64,000 nt of DNA from a virus. Taxonomy: Duplodnaviria > Caudoviricetes. This document shows, piece by piece, positions 44,834 through 51,730 of this stretch. The notes under the pieces were generated by a model. That model had not been told where the DNA came from. It worked only from the letters and a program-made list of their open reading frames with translations, and did not search any database. The stretch is taken from IMG/VR virus record IMGVR_UViG_3300037602_000037. The stretch is one strand, 5' to 3'. Position 1 is the first letter of the stretch. Each line of letters opens with the position of its first letter. Position numbers and translations under genes: made by a program.

Positions 44834-45292
44834 ATGATGATAACCGACCGTCGTATAAAAATTGGAATTATGGCTTTGGACCCTAAAGCTTGGCATCCTG
44901 AATATGCTACTAAGGGTTCTGTTGGAGCTGATTTGAGAGCCTGTATAGACAGTCAAATCGAAATTGGTCCCGGACAAACAAAAGTAATATCGACTGGTAT
45001 TGCTATTGACCTGCCCTATAATTACGCGGCGGAAGTGCGTAGCCGTTCGGGTATGGCCGCTAAAAATAGTGTGGTAGTAGCTAATAGCCCTGGTACTATC
45101 GACTCTGACTACAAGGGCGAAATAAAAGTAATTTTGATTAACCATGGGGATAAGGATACCATAATATTCCCGCGTCAGCGTATAGCGCAGCTAGTTATTG
45201 TACCGGCTTACCGAGCGGACTTTGAAAGTATATACGAAATGACAGAATCTACCAGAGGTAAAGGTGGATTAGGTTCAACCGGTAATGAATGA
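44834..45292 (+). CDS. dut: trimeric dUTPase
   Basis: GADL, RSRSG, GTIDSDYKGE, RIAQL, RGKGGLGSTG. Confidence 0.95.
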   Translation: MMITDRRIKIGIMALDPKAWHPEYATKGSVGADLRACIDSQIEIGPGQTKVISTGIAIDLPYNYAAEVRSRSGMAAKNSVVVANSPGTIDSDYKGEIKVILINHGDKDTIIFPRQRIAQLVIVPAYRADFESIYEMTESTRGKGGLGSTGNE

Positions 45293-45326
45293 AAAACGTT
45301 TAGTAAACCAAACGAAGGAAGATAAG

Positions 45327-45533
45327 ATGAAACTGAATGAAGTTGTGGAAGTTCGTGGTGTTACAAAGAAGGGCAAGGACCGAGTAAAGCGTCACGGCAG
45401 CAAATGGAAGGTTATCCGTACTAGCGGTAACGGATTTCTTTTGAGTTCGGTGGAAACACAGTACAATAAGTGGGTTTACACAAACGTTAAAAACGATTTC
45501 GAGGTAGTCCGAAATCTCGAAAACGTGGGCTAA
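45327..45533 (+). CDS. hypothetical protein
   Basis: AAGGA RBS before ATG 45327. Confidence 0.55.
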   Translation: MKLNEVVEVRGVTKKGKDRVKRHGSKWKVIRTSGNGFLLSSVETQYNKWVYTNVKNDFEVVRNLENVG

Positions 45534-45769
45534 TTATCGTCTTGAGCTAACGGTAAAGTGCCTACGTTAGGATCGTAGTTCTCCCCGCTCTACGATCCGA
45601 AACTCAAGTGGTAGTAAACTGTCCTGCTACCTTTTGGTGATAGAAATTGTCGTGGACAGTTTGGCAATAACGCCCTCCCGTACCGGCATCTAACAAACGG
45701 GATGATAGACTGACAGGAAGGAAAAGACTTCAATGTGGAGAGGGAAAGTAAAATTTCCCTCTCTGCGAC

Positions 45770-45898
45770 CTTTGTAATTAGGCGAGTGTTGCTGAAGTCA
45801 TTAGTGTAGACAAGGTGCGGCCCATTAGCGGGACAGCGATCTGGTTAGGCCAGCCGGAGCTAGATAAACACCGTCGCAACATTCACCTAATTACAAAG
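45770..45898 (+). ncRNA. candidate structured ncRNA closed by a 23-bp stem
   Basis: CTTTGTAATTAGGCGAGTGTTGC (45770-92) pairs with GCAACATTCACCTAATTACAAAG (45876-98); internal hairpins. Confidence 0.55.
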
Positions 45899-45908
45899 TA
45901 TAATTCGT

Positions 45909-45992
45909 GGCCACGTGTCGGAATTGGTAGACGATGGGGACTTAAAATCCCTTGCCTAGTGCGTGCGGGTTCGACTCCCGCCGTGGCCACCA
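45909..45992 (+). tRNA. tRNA-Leu(UAA)
   Basis: Acceptor GGCCACG/CGTGGCC, anticodon loop CT-TAA-AA, long variable arm, GGTTCGACTCC, encoded CCA. Confidence 0.93.
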
Positions 45993-46031
45993 ATTATACT
46001 TTGGTAAGCAAATGTGAAAGAGGAATCACAT

Positions 46032-46265
46032 ATGGGTGCTAGACTTTTAGAAAACGAAGATATTGATAAGTTTATTCCTGAACTCAAAAAGTTAGACGAC
46101 GTAGGATACGTCGAGGAAGGTCCAGTGGATGAGCTTAGAAAAGAGATAGAGCTTCGAGTTGGTTACCCCATTGCTCGTTCTTTGTTCTTTAGATTGATTA
46201 AATATGAGATGGCAGAACGGTACATAGAAAAGGTGTTAAATTCCAAGGAAGATTCAAATGGCTAA
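46032..46265 (+). CDS. hypothetical protein
   Basis: AGGA RBS before ATG 46032. Confidence 0.6.
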   Translation: MGARLLENEDIDKFIPELKKLDDVGYVEEGPVDELRKEIELRVGYPIARSLFFRLIKYEMAERYIEKVLNSKEDSNG

Positions 46266-46494
46266 AACAACTGGCACTGTCTCAATTGGGGACGAAGTAG
46301 ATTGCGGCGGCGCTGTAGGTAAAGTAAAAGCAATTGAAGGAGCTTACGTAATAGTTAAAGGTGTTTATGACTACGGCGGTTTAGTAGAACCTTACACTTT
46401 TGAATACAAAAAGGAAGAACTAGAAGCTTGTTCTATTAATGAGTGTAACCAACGGGATGCTTCTAATTTGGAACATGGTTACGTGGTAGCTTAA
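46258..46494 (+). CDS. hypothetical protein
   Basis: AAGGA RBS. Confidence 0.6.
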   Translation: MAKTTGTVSIGDEVDCGGAVGKVKAIEGAYVIVKGVYDYGGLVEPYTFEYKKEELEACSINECNQRDASNLEHGYVVA

Positions 46495-46599
46495 ACTTGA
46501 AATTAGGGTGTGTCGTCTTTAATGACATTAAATCGCTGTTGAATAATCGACTGGCTAAGTAGATTTGCGTTCTACCCCTTGTACCTTGAAAGGTAAATT

Positions 46600-46872
46600 A
46601 TGAGAGATGCTGATTTTGACAGTTTTTTAATTGATCCTTATAAAAAAGCTACTTATGAAGATAATAAAAAACAACGCTATTCCATCGTGGAACCGGAATA
46701 TGAAGAAGGTGATCCAACTTGGTCCGTATTATGTCATTATCAGGAAGAAGAAATTGAAGATGGTGAAGTTGTATTGTCCGGAGGCACTAAAACTTTAGGG
46801 TTGTTTCATTCAAAGCAAAGGGCGGTTGACTTTATAGTAAAAGATAGGAAAGCCAGGAAGATACATTTATGA
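46600..46872 (+). CDS. hypothetical protein
   Basis: ORF track. Confidence 0.6.
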   Translation: MRDADFDSFLIDPYKKATYEDNKKQRYSIVEPEYEEGDPTWSVLCHYQEEEIEDGEVVLSGGTKTLGLFHSKQRAVDFIVKDRKARKIHL

Positions 46873-47204
46873 CTACTACTAGTGAAGTAAGAAACGTTTG
46901 CGTTAGGATATACCCCAACGGTGAAGTAAAGTATTCTGTCAGAGACGAGGAAGGTACTAAGAGTTGGCTAGAGTATAACTCTGTATACCGTTTTGGAAAC
47001 ACGCTTTTCATCAATAGAGTGTACCAAGAAAAAACGGGATATGTTAGACCCGGTCAAAAGAACTTTGAATTGTTCCAAGAATTTGTTAATTCCTTCGAAC
47101 CGGAAGATAGTGTAGAAAGGTTCATTCGTGGTGATAATGAAGAGGGTTTTCCTTACTACCATGATGATATTCATGGGCCTTTAATTGAAGTAATCTATGA
47201 ATAA
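46869..47204 (+). CDS. hypothetical protein
   Basis: Coupled ORF. Confidence 0.6.
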   Translation: MTTTSEVRNVCVRIYPNGEVKYSVRDEEGTKSWLEYNSVYRFGNTLFINRVYQEKTGYVRPGQKNFELFQEFVNSFEPEDSVERFIRGDNEEGFPYYHDDIHGPLIEVIYE

Positions 47205-47350
47205 CGTATCTGATGAGTTTGTGAAACTCAAACGTAACCAGAGTACTAAGTAGGTGAGGCTACTATAAATAATCCTCACAAGTTAGGGCGTCTGCTATAT
47301 GTGATTGGTGTAATCGGTGTTAGCTACCGAGTATAGTAGGTGAAAGCCCT

Positions 47351-47429
47351 TCCAATTGTTGTTGCTATTCGGTTTGGGGTCGCGACCTAAGCGTATTGCG
47401 GAGTATGAGTTCCGTCAATAACAATTGGA
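47351..47429 (+). ncRNA. candidate small structured RNA (14-bp closing stem + two hairpins)
   Basis: TCCAATTGTTGTTG / CAATAACAATTGGA; inner GTTTGGG..CCTAAGC and CGGAG..TTCCG. Confidence 0.45.
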
Positions 47430-47436
47430 GAAGATT

Positions 47437-47472
47437 GGGTGCTTAGCTCAGCTGGTTAGAGCAACCGCCTTA
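47437..47472 (+). pseudogene. 5' half of a split tRNA gene (probably Val-UAC)
   Basis: GGGTGCT-TA-GCTC-AGCTGGTTA-GAGC-A-ACCGC-CT-TA, broken within the anticodon; acceptor strand pairs with 48232-48238. Confidence 0.85.
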
Positions 47473-48207
47473 TTTTGGGAGTATAGCTTAGTGGTAAAGC
47501 AATCGACTTTTAATCGATTGACCCGAGTTCGATCCTCGGTGCTCCTACCAATTAATTCGAACTAGAATACTAATTCTTTTATATCGCGGGTTCGATATAA
47601 GGATTTATAATATGAAAAAATTTTTAAGGTGTAATGGTTATATTTTGTTGTATAAACCAAAACATCCTAGAGCTTTTTCAAAAGGTAAAGCAGGTAAGAA
47701 CGGATTAGCAGGATATGTATATGAACATATTTACGTAGCCGAACGAAGTATGCATAGAAGACTTAGACCGGAAGAAGATGTCCATCATATGGACTTAGAT
47801 AGATCAAATAATTCTTGGGATAATTTGTTAGTATTGGAAAATACTCAACATGGTAAATTACACGGATTCCTTAAATCTATTGGGTTAAAAGAAAATAATG
47901 TTGGACATAGTCAGCGTAAATATTCAAAAATACCTCGATGCTGCATATGCAAATTTCCTTTACGTAAAGGACAGGATATTACGTGTTCGATTAAATGTGA
48001 TAGAATCAAAAGAAAAAATAATGCAAAAGTTAAAGTTTCCTGTAAAAAATTACATAAACAGTTATCCAAACATTCTTGGGTTAAAGTGGCTGCTTACTAC
48101 GGTTTGTCAGATAACGGACTTAGAAAACACGCAAAGTCTATTGGATTAACTGTATCCGATTATAAAGGTGGTAAATTTGTAGGATACAAACAACCTGAGT
48201 TCAATTA
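47473..48207 (+). mobile_element. tRNA-Lys + HNH endonuclease cassette inserted in a tRNA gene
   Basis: Lies between complementary halves of an outer tRNA. Confidence 0.75.
47477..47550 (+). tRNA. tRNA-Lys(UUU)
   Basis: GGGAGTA/TGCTCCT acceptor, ATCGA-CT-TTT-AA-TCGAT anticodon arm, CCGAG-TTCGATC-CTCGG, CCA. Confidence 0.93.
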
Positions 48208-48208
48208 G
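47612..48208 (+). CDS. HNH homing endonuclease
   Basis: YEHIYVAE...EDVHHMDLDRSNNSWDNL; CCIC..CSIKC zinc motif; C-terminal HTH-like segment. Confidence 0.88.
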   Translation: MKKFLRCNGYILLYKPKHPRAFSKGKAGKNGLAGYVYEHIYVAERSMHRRLRPEEDVHHMDLDRSNNSWDNLLVLENTQHGKLHGFLKSIGLKENNVGHSQRKYSKIPRCCICKFPLRKGQDITCSIKCDRIKRKNNAKVKVSCKKLHKQLSKHSWVKVAAYYGLSDNGLRKHAKSIGLTVSDYKGGKFVGYKQPEFN

Positions 48209-48242
48209 TAGGTCGTGGGTTCGAGTCCCACAGCACCCACCA
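48208..48242 (+). pseudogene. 3' half of split tRNA gene 1
   Basis: GT-AGGTC-GTGGG-TTCGAGT-CCCAC-AGCACCC-ACCA. Confidence 0.88.
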
Positions 48243-48260
48243 ATATTTTGGAGAACATCA

Positions 48261-48371
48261 ATGCGTTTAACTATTTACTGTATTTTTATTACTCTTTTCG
48301 TATCATCCTGTGGTATTATTCCTAAGAACTGTTCTCAAGACGAGTACTTAACCAACAGTTTATGCAATTAG
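48261..48371 (+). CDS. small lipoprotein (36 aa, not in ORF track)
   Basis: GGAG RBS; MRLTIYCIFITLFVSSC lipobox-like. Confidence 0.55.
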   Translation: MRLTIYCIFITLFVSSCGIIPKNCSQDEYLTNSLCN

Positions 48372-48382
48372 CGAGATTTTCT

Positions 48383-48736
48383 ATGAGTGCTTATACCAAG
48401 CATAATTCAAAATTTTATTATTCTCTTGTAGATGATAAGTACTCAGTAATTGACCCCGTTACTTGGCATGTAGGTTCCATTTATGGTCCTACTATTGAAG
48501 TGCCTGAAGACTTCAATTTCGATGTATCGATACCTAAAATACTGGTTTGGTTATTCGATCCGCACGATAAACGTTATATTAAAGCTGCTTGTTTGCACGA
48601 TTACATGCTAAGTGAACTTAAGTGGAATAGGTTAACAGCCGCTGCTGAATTTCATGAAGCTTTATTGGCAGATAAAGTACCTATTTGGAGGCGGTTAGTT
48701 ATGTTTTTGGCTACTGCTTTGTATAGGTACAAATAA
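48383..48736 (+). CDS. DUF1353-like protein
   Basis: IEVPEDFNFDVSIP, AACLHDYM. Confidence 0.7.
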   Translation: MSAYTKHNSKFYYSLVDDKYSVIDPVTWHVGSIYGPTIEVPEDFNFDVSIPKILVWLFDPHDKRYIKAACLHDYMLSELKWNRLTAAAEFHEALLADKVPIWRRLVMFLATALYRYK

Positions 48737-48756
48737 TATTATCATAGGATACGATA

Positions 48757-49029
48757 ATGTCAAATAAGCTTATTAAAACTGTTACTGAGGTGAGCGCTCT
48801 ACCTATTGAAAATGCTCCGAAAGACGGTACACTAATTAAGCTACTAGTTGATTATTCAGGTAAAGAATCCCGTTATCCGTTAGATGATTTGAAAGTGGCG
48901 TGGACTATTGGTTTTAACAATCTTGACAATACAGAAATAGACGAGTGGGAAATGGTAGGATGGAATTGGTCACAAGACCATTTTACTAACGGTAAAGGTA
49001 AGGTAATAGGTTGGCTTCCGTTCTTTTAA
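48757..49029 (+). CDS. hypothetical protein (PIExAPKDGT family)
   Basis: PIENAPKDGT...IGWLP. Confidence 0.65.
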   Translation: MSNKLIKTVTEVSALPIENAPKDGTLIKLLVDYSGKESRYPLDDLKVAWTIGFNNLDNTEIDEWEMVGWNWSQDHFTNGKGKVIGWLPFF

Positions 49030-49047
49030 CGTAACATATAGTATGTT

Positions 49048-49071
49048 GGGCTTGTAGCTCAATTGGTTAGA
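49048..49071 (+). pseudogene. 5' fragment of split tRNA gene 2
   Basis: GGGCTTG-TA-GCTC-AATTGGTTA-GA, broken in the D-stem; acceptor strand pairs with 49743-49749. Confidence 0.85.
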
Positions 49072-49080
49072 TATAGTTAC

Positions 49081-49156
49081 GGGGGAGTAGCTCAATGGTT
49101 AGAGCCAGTTGCTCATAACAACTTGGTTGCAGGTTCGAGTCCTGTCTCCCCTACCA
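49081..49156 (+). tRNA. tRNA with CAU anticodon (elongator Met or lysidine Ile2)
   Basis: GGGGGAG/CTCCCCT acceptor, AGTTG-CT-CAT-AA-CAACT, GCAGG-TTCGAGT-CCTGT, CCA. Confidence 0.92.
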
Positions 49157-49171
49157 ACTGTTAGGTGTATA

Positions 49172-49717
49172 ATGAAAGTATCTTGTACTACAAAAGAAAC
49201 TAGGAAGCGAGATAAATTTTTGTTACCTTATTTAAGGAAACTATTTATTATAGACCAAGGTAAAGGTTTGGTACGTAGTAAATATTCGGGTAAACTAGTA
49301 GGTAAACCTCGTAATAAAAACTCTTATGGAGGTATAGGATTAAAAATAAATGGTAAATGCTATTTTATTAATACCCATAGGGTTATTTGGTTAGTATCAA
49401 AAGGTCTTGTACCCGTAGGTTACGTTATAAACCATAAAAACGGAGTCAAAAGTATATCTAAAATATCTAATTTAGAATGCATTTCAGCCGGAAATAATCA
49501 AAAACACGCTTACAGAAATAAATTGAGAAATATTTCTAATAATCCAGGTTCTAATAACGGCAATGCTCTTTTTACCAATAAACAGGTTAGTAAAATTCGT
49601 AAATTGTTTATTGGTAAAAAGAAAAGTAGAAATAACTTTTACAAAGTAGCTAAATTTTATGGTGTTTCTACCAATACAATACGTTCTATGGTAAACAATC
49701 AAACGTATAAAACATAA
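49172..49717 (+). CDS. HNH homing endonuclease
   Basis: THRVIW...VINHKNGVKSISKISNLEC..GNNQKHAY; C-terminal HTH (VAKFYGVSTNTIRSMV); AGGTG RBS before ATG 49172. Confidence 0.88.
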   Translation: MKVSCTTKETRKRDKFLLPYLRKLFIIDQGKGLVRSKYSGKLVGKPRNKNSYGGIGLKINGKCYFINTHRVIWLVSKGLVPVGYVINHKNGVKSISKISNLECISAGNNQKHAYRNKLRNISNNPGSNNGNALFTNKQVSKIRKLFIGKKKSRNNFYKVAKFYGVSTNTIRSMVNNQTYKT

Positions 49718-49753
49718 GATTGGTTGGGGGTTCGAGTCCCTCCAGGCCCACCA
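49718..49753 (+). pseudogene. 3' half of split tRNA gene 2
   Basis: GAT-TGGTT-GGGGG-TTCGAGT-CCCTC-CAGGCCC-ACCA. Confidence 0.88.
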
Positions 49754-49829
49754 TACTATATGCTATTCAAATTCCGCAATGGTGCGGATAGGCGGTTGCG
49801 GCCGTCGCTTTCGACTATAGGAGATAAGT

Positions 49830-50105
49830 ATGTCGGAATCTGAAGAAGTAAGCATGTCTGTTGAGTACCGCATTAAGGAAGTCAAACGTTATATTGTTAC
49901 TAGATGCTATAATATAACGGGTCCAGGTCAATCATCAGGAGGCGTCGAAGAACGCGGTGAATTTCAAAATGCGGATATAGCCTGGGAAGTAGGTTACGCT
50001 TTGTGTAAAGCCGAGCATGAACGACTCGGATATCCGGTAGATGATGAGCGAATCCAGTACCCTCGTCATCCTAGCAGTAGTATCGCTTCACCCAATGTTA
50101 GTTAA
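49830..50105 (+). CDS. hypothetical protein
   Basis: AGGAG RBS. Confidence 0.65.
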   Translation: MSESEEVSMSVEYRIKEVKRYIVTRCYNITGPGQSSGGVEERGEFQNADIAWEVGYALCKAEHERLGYPVDDERIQYPRHPSSSIASPNVS

Positions 50106-50118
50106 GTAACTTAGAACC

Positions 50119-50156
50119 TGGCGGGCTAATAATAAAATTAGCCCGCCAACTTATTT
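50119..50156 (+). terminator. intrinsic terminator-like hairpin
   Basis: TGGCGGGCTAAT / ATTAGCCCGCCA. Confidence 0.6.
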
Positions 50157-50176
50157 GAACGAAAATGGAGATAAGC

Positions 50177-50938
50177 ATGACTCAGAAGATTTTTATTGCT
50201 AAAAGCGACGTTAGTATTGATATTAAGGAAGGCCAGTTGTTCTATTATGAAAAAGGCGGTACGGTTGAACTAATTCCCTCTAACTTTGAACTAGTTCCAG
50301 AAGAACTACAACCAATAAACGCTGATTCTTTAGAGGAAAATGATTTTTTCCTTGACATAGAAAATGATTTGCGTATTGTGGGAGGGGTTACCTCTAAGTA
50401 CGTAGTAACCTTGCCGGTTGAAATTGAGTATACAACTGAAACTATTAGTGAAAAACCTCAACTTAAAGGCGGTCCTGATGTAAGTTTAATAGACGATGAT
50501 TACGACGATGACGACATTGAAGAAGATGATAAACCAATATTTGACACTAGTATGGTGCAGGTAATACGTAAAATTAGGGAGGACATCAAGTCTAAAGTAG
50601 TTAAAATGACTTATGAACAAGCTTTAAACTACGTTAAAGAAATAAGTGGTGAGACTTTTAATAAAAAATATGATGACGATGACGAAGGTAACGATGATTT
50701 CCGTAATCGTTACCTTCGTCGTGGCCATAGTAATATCCTTCCTTACCTTAACAAACACGGGCAAAGATGCGTAGTAACTTACCATTTAAAAATTGATGAT
50801 AAACCGGAAGTAATTAATAAAGAAAATTCCGTAATGTTTAAAAATGATGAGTTTTATAATAAGTTCAAACGCACGTCGCCAATAAAAAATAAAAGGAAAA
50901 TAGGTAGGAGTAAACGTGGTGTAGTAATACACAAATAG
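50177..50938 (+). CDS. hypothetical protein
   Basis: GGAG RBS before ATG 50177; acidic tracts. Confidence 0.7.
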   Translation: MTQKIFIAKSDVSIDIKEGQLFYYEKGGTVELIPSNFELVPEELQPINADSLEENDFFLDIENDLRIVGGVTSKYVVTLPVEIEYTTETISEKPQLKGGPDVSLIDDDYDDDDIEEDDKPIFDTSMVQVIRKIREDIKSKVVKMTYEQALNYVKEISGETFNKKYDDDDEGNDDFRNRYLRRGHSNILPYLNKHGQRCVVTYHLKIDDKPEVINKENSVMFKNDEFYNKFKRTSPIKNKRKIGRSKRGVVIHK

Positions 50939-51100
50939 TACGCTGATCCGGGATGGGGATATTCCGTTGATCGCTACTATATCACAAAATGTTGACCGTG
51001 TTTTGTGATTAGCTTGACTAAATACCAGTTAGTAAACAAGCACGTCCATATTTGAACCTCGCGAATTATGGACAACGGTTTAATTTGAATGGAGATACAT

Positions 51101-51730
51101 ATGACTAAAGTAGTTATTCCCTTGACAGGTGGAATGGACTCTTCCTACATGGTGTACAAAGCCCTTAATATGGGCTTAGACGTTTACCCTCTTATCTTTG
51201 ACGATAGTTATGGTGGTTACTCCATGAGAGATAAGACTATCAAACCAGCTATTAGGGTACTACAACAAGCAGGACTTGCCCACAAAGTTCACATCATACC
51301 CTTCTTTCCCACCAATGTACATAAACTATCTGATGAGCACTACGGTTACACTCCGGGTAGGAATATGCTAATAGCTATGTCTAGTGTTGCTTATGCGGAG
51401 TTTGTTGGTGCTGATGAAGTATGGCTGGGTTTCAACGCTTCACAAGAAGGTTTTTACCCTGATCAAAATCAAAAAATGTTTGATGACATTTCTAATCTGT
51501 ATGAAAGCGTTTACAATTTCAAGGTCACCATTGTTCTTCCTCTTTTAGAAATGACTAGAAAGGAAGTAGTAATTTGGGGTACTCAGCTAGGAGTACCTTT
51601 TGAAGAGACTGTTAGCTGTGTTAATACACCAATATCTGTAAATTGTGGTAAGTGTAACAGGTGTAAAGAACGAAAAGAAGCTTTTAAGTCAGCTGGTATA
51701 CCGGATAAAACCATCTACTATGGGGATTAG
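51101..51730 (+). CDS. queC: 7-cyano-7-deazaguanine synthase QueC
   Basis: LTGGMDS, TPGRN, FYPD, ETVSC...CGKCNRC. Confidence 0.88.
   Translation: MTKVVIPLTGGMDSSYMVYKALNMGLDVYPLIFDDSYGGYSMRDKTIKPAIRVLQQAGLAHKVHIIPFFPTNVHKLSDEHYGYTPGRNMLIAMSSVAYAEFVGADEVWLGFNASQEGFYPDQNQKMFDDISNLYESVYNFKVTIVLPLLEMTRKEVVIWGTQLGVPFEETVSCVNTPISVNCGKCNRCKERKEAFKSAGIPDKTIYYGD

Follow-up and report, generated by a model that had tools for sequence, protein, structure and literature searches.

Homing endonucleases persist in essential genes by way of introns, inteins or a position beside the gene. Group I introns that carry HNH open reading frames (ORFs) occupy the anticodon loops of cyanobacterial tRNA-Leu and tRNA-fMet genes, and I-HmuI, a nicking HNH enzyme encoded by an intron of Bacillus phage SPO1, has C-terminal DNA-binding helices. 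For the free-standing endonuclease F-CphI at psbA of cyanophages, homing is of the trans, or collaborative, type. The same type of homing is described for mobE with I-TevIII, where the free-standing endonuclease lies next to a resistant allele (PMC2790892). Among phage tRNA genes, a described system is SegB of T4 and T6, a free-standing endonuclease whose DNA target in tRNA genes includes the T-psi-C motif and which spreads together with the neighbouring tRNA genes (PMC2330249). The unit formed by tRNA-Tyr and segB moves as one block (PMC13096335). A full-text literature search returned papers on SegB and on endonucleases in general, and none that describes a tRNA gene split by an insert of a tRNA and an HNH gene.

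Organization of the locus

The window is a 64,000-nt stretch from IMG/VR record IMGVR_UViG_3300037602_000037. The genome is that of a pond phage; it measures 165.8 kb, is complete with direct terminal repeats and contains three tRNAs in total (ARAGORN and Rfam). Two of the three are cargo genes that lie inside another tRNA gene (Table 1). Within 2.3 kb the same order occurs twice: the 5' part of an outer tRNA (A), an intact CCA-ending tRNA (B), an HNH_3 ORF and the 3' part of the outer tRNA. HNH1 and HNH2 are the only HNH_3 genes of the genome, and both adjoin tRNAs. Each cassette is proposed, with a probability of roughly three in four, to be a free-standing, intron-less homing-endonuclease element that carries a tRNA.

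The + strand of the genome was scanned for a T-arm and acceptor strand with a complementary 5' acceptor 100–2500 nt upstream. Exactly two matches were returned, cassettes 1 and 2, whereas ten shuffled genomes gave 0, 2, 0, 0, 0, 0, 0, 0, 0 and 0 matches. The nested order reported in the initial annotation is confirmed by the tRNA calls, the acceptor pairing and this comparison with shuffled genomes. Three further features reported there are also seen in the sequence. The acceptor strands of each outer tRNA form a 7-bp stem (GGGTGCT/AGCACCC, 7/7 Watson–Crick pairs, in cassette 1; 7/7 pairs, one of them G-U, in cassette 2), the outer 3' part abuts the HNH stop codon, beginning one base past it in cassette 1 and two bases past it in cassette 2, and both cargo tRNAs have a G1-U72 pair, which neither tRNA-Leu nor either outer gene shares. 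The anticodon region was described as lost from both outer genes. This is true of cassette 2, where the 5' part ends within the D-stem 3' strand and the whole anticodon arm is missing, and only in part of cassette 1, which lacks the anticodon-stem 3' strand and retains the 5' stem strand and the loop CCTTA. Both HNH ORFs are free-standing, each with its own ribosome-binding site, and promoter and terminator scans inside the two cassettes gave nothing above shuffled background.

Table 1 Coordinates of the tRNA genes, tRNA parts, junction sequences and HNH ORFs in the window
Feature	Position	Strand	Description	Basis
tRNA-Leu(UAA)	45909-45992		third tRNA of the genome, not a cargo gene	ARAGORN, Rfam
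Outer tRNA-A1, 5' part	47437-47472	+	acceptor strand, D-arm, anticodon-stem 5' strand, loop up to U34-A35	sequence
Leader, cassette 1	47473-47476	+	TTTT at the 5' junction	sequence
Cargo tRNA-B1	47477-47550	+	intact tRNA-Lys(UUU), encoded CCA, G1-U72, U6-G67	ARAGORN; Rfam tRNA, 71.8 bits
Spacer	47551-47611	+	TCGAAC...GTTCGA hairpin motif; Shine-Dalgarno AAGGA before HNH1	sequence
HNH1	47612-48208	+	198-aa HNH_3 endonuclease ORF, phrog_15471 family; stop codon 48206-48208	Pfam, PHROGs
Outer tRNA-A1, 3' part	48210-48242	+	variable loop AGGTC, T-arm, acceptor strand, A73, CCA	
Outer tRNA-A2, 5' part	49048-49071	+	acceptor strand, D-stem, D-loop, first 2 nt of D-stem 3' strand	
Filler, cassette 2	49072-49080	+	9 nt, TATAGTTAC, at the 5' junction	sequence
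Cargo tRNA-B2	49081-49156	+	intact, CAU anticodon (Met or Ile2 type), encoded CCA, G1-U72	ARAGORN; Rfam tRNA, 65.7 bits
HNH2	49172-49717	+	181-aa HNH_3 endonuclease ORF, phrog_59-like; AGGTG 5' of ATG; stop codon 49715-49717	Pfam, PHROGs
Outer tRNA-A2, 3' part	49720-49753	+	variable loop TTGGT(T), T-arm, acceptor strand, A73, CCA	

The outer genes were identified by comparison with other tRNAs. For A1, 118 of the 120 bacterial tRNAs that have the same acceptor stem and TAGCTCAG are Val, 116 of these with the anticodon UAC, and the best match to the 5' part is identical at 33 of 36 positions, GCCTTA included. Based on these matches, outer gene 1 is classed as tRNA-Val(UAC)-like. An exact 27-nt query from the A1 5' part had no match in viral contigs. 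An assignment of A1 as a mutated tRNA-Lys, suggested by its likeness to the CTTTTTTT junction of the IMG/VR contig L010, was dropped in view of the predominance of Val among tRNAs with this acceptor stem and the retention of GCCTTA. For A2, a contig of sequencing run X7 links position 49071 to 49720 via 19 nt that include CTCATAA, giving an intact homologue with a CAU anticodon, and further intact CAU homologues are present in the viral contigs L292 and L293. Outer gene 2 is, by this homology, classed as a tRNA(CAU) gene.

The cargo tRNAs both score above the Rfam tRNA gathering score of 29. B1 is identical to the tRNA-Lys of L008 at 63 of 74 positions, and eight of the 11 differing positions make up four stem pairs that have changed on both sides and all still pair, a pattern that points to selection on the cargo tRNA. 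Judged from the full cloverleaf recognised by Rfam and, for B1, from these compensated stem changes, both cargo tRNAs are working genes. The module of tRNA-Lys, spacer and HNH1 is found again in other contexts: by blastn, the stretch from the cargo tRNA through the spacer to HNH1 matches L008 at 67.5%, and the stretch from the spacer into HNH1 matches L010 at 69%. A T run also marks the 5' junction of the L010 cassette, and a T-rich stretch lies immediately 5' of the free-standing cargo tRNA in L008. The TCGAAC motif of the spacer is present in phiKZ and Psa21 as well; the corresponding hairpin is strong in L010 and phiKZ and weak in the window, and for this reason no argument rests on it. Cassette 1, with a Lys cargo in a Val(UAC)-like gene, looks like an off-type insertion of the tRNA-Lys and HNH module.

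HNH proteins and their families

Both ORFs pass the Pfam HNH_3 cut-off of 24.8 bits (27.2 and 35.9 bits), and no GIY-YIG domain is found in either, Pfam giving HNH_3 only and PHROGs HNH families only. HNH1 has the catalytic H/N residues together with a Cys cluster and a C-terminal HTH-like motif, and alignments with relatives indicate that the invariant H/N columns are retained in both ORFs. In agreement with the earlier view that the two enzymes are of different types and that the locus is not a simple duplication, HNH1 and HNH2 belong to different PHROG families and BLASTP aligns only a 25-residue, HTH-like C-terminal stretch between them. HNH2 aligns weakly with I-HmuI (PDB ID: 1U3E, E 0.06), likewise a small HNH enzyme; in contrast to HNH2, I-HmuI is intron-encoded and targets a DNA polymerase gene, and the similarity is marginal.

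Members of the HNH1 family are associated with tRNA genes. Among 18 non-redundant full-length relatives from IMG/VR, a same-strand tRNA ends no more than 200 nt upstream of the HNH gene in 13, and a tRNA or a T-arm/acceptor remnant lies just downstream in 15. Two relatives (L011 and L015) are located between the halves of a tRNA(CAU) that is split after the anticodon. In many members of the family the HNH gene has an intact tRNA on either side and no tRNA gene is split, and the nested form may therefore be a by-product rather than the normal product of homing. The wider family of HNH2 is mostly not beside tRNAs: any tRNA is present in 5 of 80 loci, three of which have a tRNA on the HNH strand beside the gene.

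This association recalls SegB of T4 and T6, with which the cassettes share a free-standing endonuclease gene among phage tRNA genes and a block of tRNA and nuclease that forms a unit (PMC2330249, PMC13096335). The likeness is one of working and not of family, as SegB is a GIY-YIG enzyme and the window enzymes are HNH. Moreover, SegB sits between tRNA genes, no report was found of it nested in a split tRNA, and it is not described as carrying a passenger tRNA that matches a destroyed target in specificity.

Insertion in phiKZ and further nested loci

The same layout is found in phiKZ, where a cargo tRNA-Asn(GUU) lies inside an outer tRNA-Asn(GUU) gene, accompanied by an HNH gene whose product is 33% identical to HNH1. 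The phiKZ insert of tRNA and HNH gene is 772 bp long (L004:2303-3074) and interrupts the anticodon loop, with the breakpoint between tRNA positions 35 and 38. At the same site PA_ZH1 and PA7, which are 99% identical to phiKZ, have an intact tRNA-Asn, and the flanks of PA_ZH1 are 99.4–99.7% identical to those of phiKZ. The insertion is clean: no target bases are lost, and the filled allele differs from the empty one by exactly the cassette. Across phiKZ-like phages, more than 20 are empty at this site and about nine are filled; the KTN4 paper records only a difference in HNH genes between the two phages KTN4 and phiKZ. In addition, phiKZ has a second, intact copy of tRNA-Asn that is identical to the empty-site gene; the HNH therefore either recognises more than the tRNA sequence or is inactive. 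A run of seven A puts the N-terminus of the phiKZ HNH out of frame.

The order of 5' fragment, tRNA, HNH gene and 3' fragment, which the initial annotation proposed to look for in other phages, was found in phiKZ, L010, L017 and L120. In the IMG/VR contig L017, a Thr(UGU) cargo lies inside a Thr-type gene (91 of the 98 viral tRNAs with that acceptor stem are Thr), and in L120 an HNH2-like gene and a Leu(UAA) lie inside a tRNA-Leu. The L010 cargo is a Lys(UUU) inside a tRNA with a loop reading CTTT..., the 5' part of which occurs in its own contig only. A control set of 98 unrelated tRNA-bearing viral loci (1.8 Mb, both strands) contained no split tRNA with a nested tRNA. The cargo has the anticodon or amino-acid identity of the broken gene in cassette 2, phiKZ, L017 and L120, which amounts to an isoacceptor match in four of the five cases with determinable identity, versus about 1 in 20 by chance.

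These observations were weighed against an origin of the cassettes as rearrangement scars, in which nuclease breaks in a tRNA array are followed by microhomology repair or segmental duplication, with neither a dedicated target nor a selected passenger. Such events have a precedent in SegB, which drives amplification of the tRNA-Tyr and segB block via microhomology (PMC13096335). They would also suit the untidy junctions in the window (the TTTT leader, the 9-nt filler and the deleted anticodon-arm sequence), the pairing of Val with Lys in cassette 1, and the resemblance of A2 to B2, which have a near-identical D-arm segment (one base differs) and a variable loop in common. Nevertheless, the clean insertion in phiKZ, the isoacceptor match far above chance and the lack of nested cases among the control loci make this origin unlikely. 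The scaffold of the phiKZ cargo tRNA is furthermore wholly different from that of its target, which rules out cargo–target homology as the cause of the isoacceptor match.

Uninterrupted alleles of the outer gene are thus available for phiKZ, in its relatives; none was found for the phage of the window, of which the collections contain no close relative. In a blastn search with the locus as query, 50,697 phage records yielded short tRNA matches only, and searches with single proteins of this phage found no related locus. No cultured phage has a DNA polymerase more than 29% identical to the one of this phage, and the DUF1353 protein encoded between the cassettes has one homologue (57%, on a 632-bp contig). 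Among the contigs of four sequencing runs, none joins across cassette 1; joints are seen only at cassette 2 and come from the tRNAs of other genomes. Insertion at this locus is consequently argued by analogy, and the presence and absence of the cassette in phiKZ and its relatives support the reading of the layout as a mobile insertion rather than an intron or a duplication.

Retained tRNA halves, introns and assembly

The outer halves may have been kept for a role as RNA, with the paired acceptor strands, T-arm and CCA serving as a processed, protected end of the HNH message, an explanation that is compatible with insertion. In the window, L017, L120 and phiKZ, the anticodon arms are lost, yet the acceptor strands pair at all or nearly all positions and the T-arms have stayed intact; in the window, L017 and crAss001, the 3' part abuts the stop codon of the HNH gene. 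In L010, the sole copy with an acceptor mismatch, the HNH gene is also frameshifted. However, recent insertion accounts equally well for the intact halves, and one or both halves are missing in L008, Psa21 and most family members; a role of this kind is considered improbable.

An argument for introns comes from relatives of HNH1: the insert in L011, located after the tRNA(CAU) anticodon, is a true group I intron (Rfam Intron_gpI, 72 bits), and L015 has matching exon ends. Were the cassettes introns, a ribozyme, or else RNase P/Z cleavage and ligation, would rebuild the outer tRNAs at the RNA level, and the cargo would be a passenger carried by the intron. The phiKZ insert could indeed be removed without loss of tRNA sequence. 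In the window, in contrast, the anticodon-stem 3' strand of cassette 1 and the entire anticodon arm of cassette 2 are missing, and therefore no joining could yield a decoding tRNA. No intron match was obtained with Rfam at E values up to 10 over positions 45000-51000, or at E values up to 0.01 over the phiKZ, L010 and L017 cassettes, and ARAGORN with its intron option found no intron-bearing tRNA. An Rnl2-type RNA ligase and RtcB were searched for in the genome and neither was found, and the outer T-loop of phiKZ has mutated relative to the intact copy. Restoration by splicing is thus very improbable, and the outer genes are dead, with the anticodon arm partly or wholly gone and an insert that has no means of splicing. 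The cassettes have in common with the group I tRNA introns of L011 and L015 an insertion at the 3' edge of the anticodon, the same HNH family, a tRNA target and the need to preserve the function of that target. Unlike these introns, they contain no ribozyme and have exons that cannot be rejoined into a tRNA, and in the window the only possible source of the function is a separate, complete tRNA inside the insert.

That the layout arose in assembly, as an artefact or a chimera formed at conserved tRNA sequence, has a negligible chance of being correct. In its favour, two Logan contigs, L001 and L002, both end at 49749, within an A2 3' part whose sequence is common to other tRNAs in the same samples. 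Across both cassettes, however, these two contigs show 100% identity, a 47.6-kb contig spans both cassettes, contigs of runs X6 and X7, from other studies, cross all four junctions at 100% identity with no differences, and cultured phages with finished genomes, phiKZ among them, have this layout too.

Proposed mechanism

For a homing element that carries a tRNA, the mobile unit would consist of a short leader, a complete tRNA gene, a spacer with a ribosome-binding site and the HNH ORF. In the window, such units would have landed in the anticodon region of resident tRNA genes, Val(UAC)-like in cassette 1 and tRNA(CAU) in cassette 2. In a co-infecting genome that has no cassette, HNH1 or HNH2 would cut or nick the uninterrupted outer tRNA gene in or near the anticodon arm, and repair would copy the cassette in, with the retained tRNA halves and the flanks as homology. 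The insertion would destroy the target and render the carrier immune, and a passenger tRNA of the same specificity and different sequence could offset the loss. Of the intron-less homing cassette put forward in the initial annotation, the mobile insertion is upheld by the 772-bp polymorphism of phiKZ and the intron-less nature by the lack of a ribozyme in either cassette. The accompanying idea that the cargo makes good the lost gene fits cassette 2 (CAU for CAU) and fails for cassette 1, where a Lys(UUU) cargo in a Val(UAC)-like gene offsets nothing; compensation is therefore not general. As in the collaborative homing of mobE and F-CphI, a free-standing nuclease gene would travel with an adjacent immune sequence that keeps the function of the target. 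The immune partner in those systems is an intron-bearing allele of a protein gene, whereas here that part would fall to a second, complete tRNA gene, with two dead halves left of the old one.

Beyond this locus, the odds are judged to be even that the cassettes represent a widespread, undescribed class of selfish elements, whose endonucleases target the anticodon region of tRNA genes and which carry a complete, nuclease-immune replacement tRNA. Such a class would provide a third route, besides introns and inteins, to neutralise the cost of insertion into a needed gene. It would explain the crowding of endonuclease genes in phage tRNA clusters, orphan tRNA halves and odd extra tRNAs, and its members would drive the turnover and horizontal flow of phage tRNA genes. 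Phage tRNA repertoires would then reflect in part the traffic of selfish elements and not codon-usage selection alone; such cassettes would have brought this phage two of its three tRNAs, and phiKZ one. With filled and empty alleles in cultured phages that are 99% identical, the phiKZ group makes homing, immunity and compensation directly testable. Finally, these loci are easily overlooked in annotation, as tRNA finders miss the split genes and report the cargo, including Asn and Lys tRNAs with a long variable arm, as ordinary tRNAs.

Two nested tRNA and HNH cassettes

The initial annotation had reported that, twice within 2.3 kb, a complete tRNA gene and an HNH endonuclease gene lie inside a split tRNA gene. 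This layout is confirmed by the anatomy of the two cassettes (see table), by a genome-wide scan, and by contigs that cross all four junctions. In each cassette, the resident (outer) tRNA gene is split by an insert that contains the complete (cargo) tRNA gene. The two halves of A1, the outer gene of cassette 1, form seven Watson–Crick pairs in the acceptor stem, and those of A2, the outer gene of cassette 2, are paired at 7/7 positions, one of which is G–U. The two HNH proteins are also, as first described, of different types: they belong to separate PHROG families and can be aligned over 25 residues only, in a C-terminal helix-turn-helix-like motif (residues 147–171 in both, 40% identity). This motif lies at an equal distance from the N-terminus in the two otherwise unrelated proteins (window 47758–47782 and 49610–49684).

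Features of the two cassettes in window coordinates
Feature	Position	Description
A1 5′ part	47437–47472	Acceptor strand, D-arm, anticodon-stem 5′ strand and loop through U34-A35
Cassette 1 leader		Four T directly after A1 5′ part
B1 cargo	47477–47550	Complete tRNA-Lys(UUU) including CCA; 71.8 bits
Cassette 1 spacer		61 nt between B1 and HNH1; contains Shine–Dalgarno sequence
HNH1	47612–48208	HNH_3 ORF, 198 aa
A1 3′ part	48210–48242	Variable loop, T-arm, acceptor strand, A73, CCA; begins 1 base past HNH1 stop
A2 5′ part	49048–49071	Acceptor strand and D-arm, broken within D-stem 3′ strand
Cassette 2 filler		Nine bases between A2 5′ part and B2
B2 cargo	49081–49156	Complete CAU tRNA including CCA; 65.7 bits
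HNH2	49172–49717	HNH_3 ORF, 181 aa
A2 3′ part	49720–49753	Variable loop, T-arm, acceptor strand, CCA; begins 2 bases past HNH2 stop

When the whole genome was scanned for a T-arm and acceptor remnant with a complementary acceptor strand upstream, only cassettes 1 and 2 were recovered on the + strand, and shuffled genomes gave almost none. A 47.6-kb and a 4.6-kb Logan contig show no difference from the window over both cassettes, and each of the four junctions is crossed, with zero differences, by short contigs from the runs of other studies. Because these contigs match across the cassettes and every junction, the assembly error raised as a possible source of the layout is excluded. Two Logan contigs from different runs both stop at 49749, within the A2 3′ part (window 49719–49749); this sequence is common to other tRNAs of the same samples and probably breaks the assembly graph there.

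The window is part of a complete 165.8-kb phage genome (38% G+C, direct terminal repeats) from pond metagenomes. The phage is remote from all cultured phages, its DNA polymerase sharing at most 29% identity with that of any of them, and no close relatives of it were found in collections. The whole genome contains three tRNA genes, Leu(UAA), Lys(UUU) and a CAU tRNA (ARAGORN and Rfam), and only two HNH_3 genes, such that the 2.3 kb under study holds both HNH genes and two-thirds of the tRNAs. Elsewhere in the window, a QueC-like ORF (51089–51730, phrog_1550) suggests a 7-deazaguanine pathway, and the non-coding region upstream of tRNA-Leu (45534–45898) matched no Rfam family.

Identity of the interrupted genes

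In bacterial genomes sampled at one per species, 120 tRNAs share with A1 both the acceptor stem and the start of the D-stem: 116 Val(UAC), two Val(GAC) and two Lys(CUU). The best match to the A1 5′ part is identical at 33 of 36 positions, the anticodon-loop sequence GCCTTA included. Based on these matches, A1 is recognizable as a tRNA-Val(UAC)-like gene broken immediately after A35. For A2, a contig from a run of another study connects 49071 to 49720 via 19 nt that give a perfect anticodon arm with the loop CTCATAA, and two viral contigs carry an intact tRNA(CAU) with an acceptor stem equal to that of A2 and near-identical halves. These sequences thus identify A2 as a former tRNA(CAU) gene. 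The proposal that the carried tRNA offsets the lost one fits cassette 2, where the cargo has the anticodon of the broken gene, and fails for cassette 1, where Lys lies inside Val.

An empty site in relatives of phiKZ

A nested arrangement is also present in phiKZ, where a tRNA-Asn 5′ part running to CTGTTA is followed by an 87-nt tRNA-Asn(GUU), the HNH gene PHIKZ296, and a 3′ part with a complementary acceptor strand. By blastn, ~9 genomes are filled at this locus, and >20 genomes of 98–99.6% identity are without ~770 bp. One of the latter, PA_ZH1, has an intact 76-nt tRNA-Asn(GUU) at the site. The alignment to PA_ZH1 breaks at 2302/3075 of the phiKZ locus (L004) with a 2-nt overlap, and thus the insert is 772 bp in length and lies between tRNA positions 35 and 38. 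It opens with a leader of 9 nt and closes with a trailer of 36 nt; between them are the cargo tRNA, a spacer and the HNH gene. Among other alleles, PA7 is empty and phage 6B is filled. Relative to the empty allele, the phiKZ outer halves differ only adjoining the insert, at one base of the anticodon stem and four of the T-loop. At the level of sequence, this filled/empty polymorphism shows the pattern characteristic of a homing element; comparison of the insert with the empty allele places the cargo tRNA within the mobile unit. Uninterrupted outer-tRNA alleles were thus found for the phiKZ relatives but not for the window phage.

A second tRNA-Asn in phiKZ is identical to the empty-site gene. 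In PHIKZ296 (L004:2484–2560), the conserved N-terminal ~25 residues are out of frame with the ATG, the frame changing over seven consecutive A, and the annotated CDS start is an internal Met; this frame break may reflect slippage at this position or decay of the gene. The surviving second tRNA-Asn and the out-of-frame PHIKZ296 suggest either that recognition involves more than the tRNA sequence or that the phiKZ nuclease copy is already decaying. In phiKZ-like phages, the two identical tRNA-Asn genes are ~2.1 kb apart (L004:140–215 and L091:967–1042), and the cassette is found only in the downstream copy.

Recurrence of the nested layout

In the cultured phages phiKZ, Psa21 and Bacillus phage McCartney, a tRNA immediately precedes the HNH1 relative. 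Among 18 full-length, non-redundant IMG/VR relatives, a same-strand tRNA ends ≤200 nt upstream in 13, and a tRNA or T-arm/acceptor remnant lies directly downstream in 15. The HNH1 family belongs to tRNA clusters, and many members have an intact tRNA on either side, their stop codon overlapping the one that follows (L013, L021, L028, J2-1). The wider HNH2 family is found mostly away from tRNAs; the HNH2-like gp99 of crAss001 is downstream of tRNA-Arg(CCU) and adjoins a T-arm/acceptor remnant.

The nested layout is recurrent, with two unrelated HNH lineages. IMG/VR contig L017 has a Thr(UGU) cargo in a Thr-type outer gene (91/98 viral tRNAs sharing its acceptor stem are Thr), and its HNH stop codon falls within the variable loop, just as it does in the window. 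In L010, a frameshifted HNH gene (56% identical to HNH1) with a homologous spacer accompanies an 86-nt tRNA-Lys(UUU) that has a long variable arm, and the outer loop reads CTTT.... In L120, an HNH2-like gene and cargo Leu(UAA) lie within tRNA-Leu. No nested case was present among 98 unrelated tRNA-bearing viral loci used as controls. Outer and cargo identities are equal in four of the five determinable cases (phiKZ, L017, L120 and cassette 2), the exception being cassette 1.

Two further loci carry possible remnants. In L041 (1824–2590), an intact tRNA-Pro(UGG) precedes an HNH gene, after which comes a 3′ tRNA remnant with an equal acceptor strand and a different T-arm; this resembles a nested cassette whose 5′ half recombined with the cargo. 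In McCartney, ~190 nt between tRNA-Asn and tRNA-Gly (L006:2130–2316) have a T-arm, an acceptor strand and CCA at their end; no tRNA is called there, and the stretch may be another interrupted tRNA.

Comparison with introns and known homing systems

A reading of the inserts as introns was rejected. Rfam detected no ribozyme in 45000–51000 (E up to 10), ARAGORN with its intron option detected no intron-containing tRNA, and Rnl2-type ligase and RtcB are both absent from the window phage genome. Above all, the outer genes lack anticodon-arm sequence: A1 is missing the anticodon-stem 3′ strand and A2 the entire anticodon arm. True group I intron cases do occur in the HNH1 family, as two of the 18 IMG/VR relatives are flanked by the two parts of a tRNA(CAU) gene that is interrupted after its anticodon. 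In L011 (about 1900–2720; also L012), Rfam Intron_gpI (72 bits) and an HNH1 relative are inside the split tRNA(CAU), and in L015 (1899–2730; also L016, L018 and L019), the exon ends rejoin to a perfect tRNA(CAU) anticodon arm. These split genes are found in jumbo-phage contigs and were missed by ARAGORN.

The nearest known system is SegB, a free-standing GIY-YIG endonuclease encoded in the tRNA cluster of T4. Its recognition is of the T-psi-C motif in tRNA genes, which travel along with it (PMC2330249); tRNA-Tyr and segB can also be amplified together, as a single block (PMC13096335). In contrast to SegB, which lies between genes, the elements described here encode HNH proteins, are located inside a tRNA gene and bring a complete tRNA. 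A full-text literature search returned no published description of a tRNA split by a tRNA and HNH insert; the KTN4 paper describes HNH differences among phiKZ-like phages and nothing further on the layout. The cassettes are classed among free-standing homing-endonuclease elements with putative cleavage activity.

Proposed mechanism and cargo tRNAs

The tRNA genes are interrupted in their anticodon region by a unit of tRNA and HNH gene, and the outer gene is dead after insertion. The HNH protein is proposed to cut or nick the uninterrupted tRNA gene close to its anticodon or variable region, and repair would copy the cassette in, with homology provided by the flanks and the two tRNA halves. Insertion would destroy the target, the cargo would escape cutting, and a cargo of the same specificity would compensate for the loss. 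The homing-cassette interpretation first put forward is thus largely right on insertion and on cassette 2 and wrong on compensation in cassette 1. In the window, L010 and L017, bases are missing from the insertion point up to the variable loop, which fits 3′-side processing at the break, although this is only suggestive.

In L008, counterparts of HNH1 (45%) and of its spacer accompany a tRNA-Lys that is identical to B1 at 63/74 positions and has a G1–U72 pair; outer halves are absent. All differing stem pairs between the two tRNAs are compensated (4/4), and therefore the cargo is a working tRNA under selection.

Finally, a long variable arm is observed in Asn(GUU) or Lys(UUU) cargo at L004:2312–2398 (phiKZ t02), L010:1855–1940, L022:1864–1946 and L024:1868–1952. 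In bacteria, this body plan is that of Leu, Ser and Tyr tRNAs. The long-arm cargo may represent re-anticodoned scaffolds accepted by AsnRS and LysRS via the anticodon. The sequence GGCGAAAGCC is common to the variable arms of the phiKZ and L010 cargo tRNAs.
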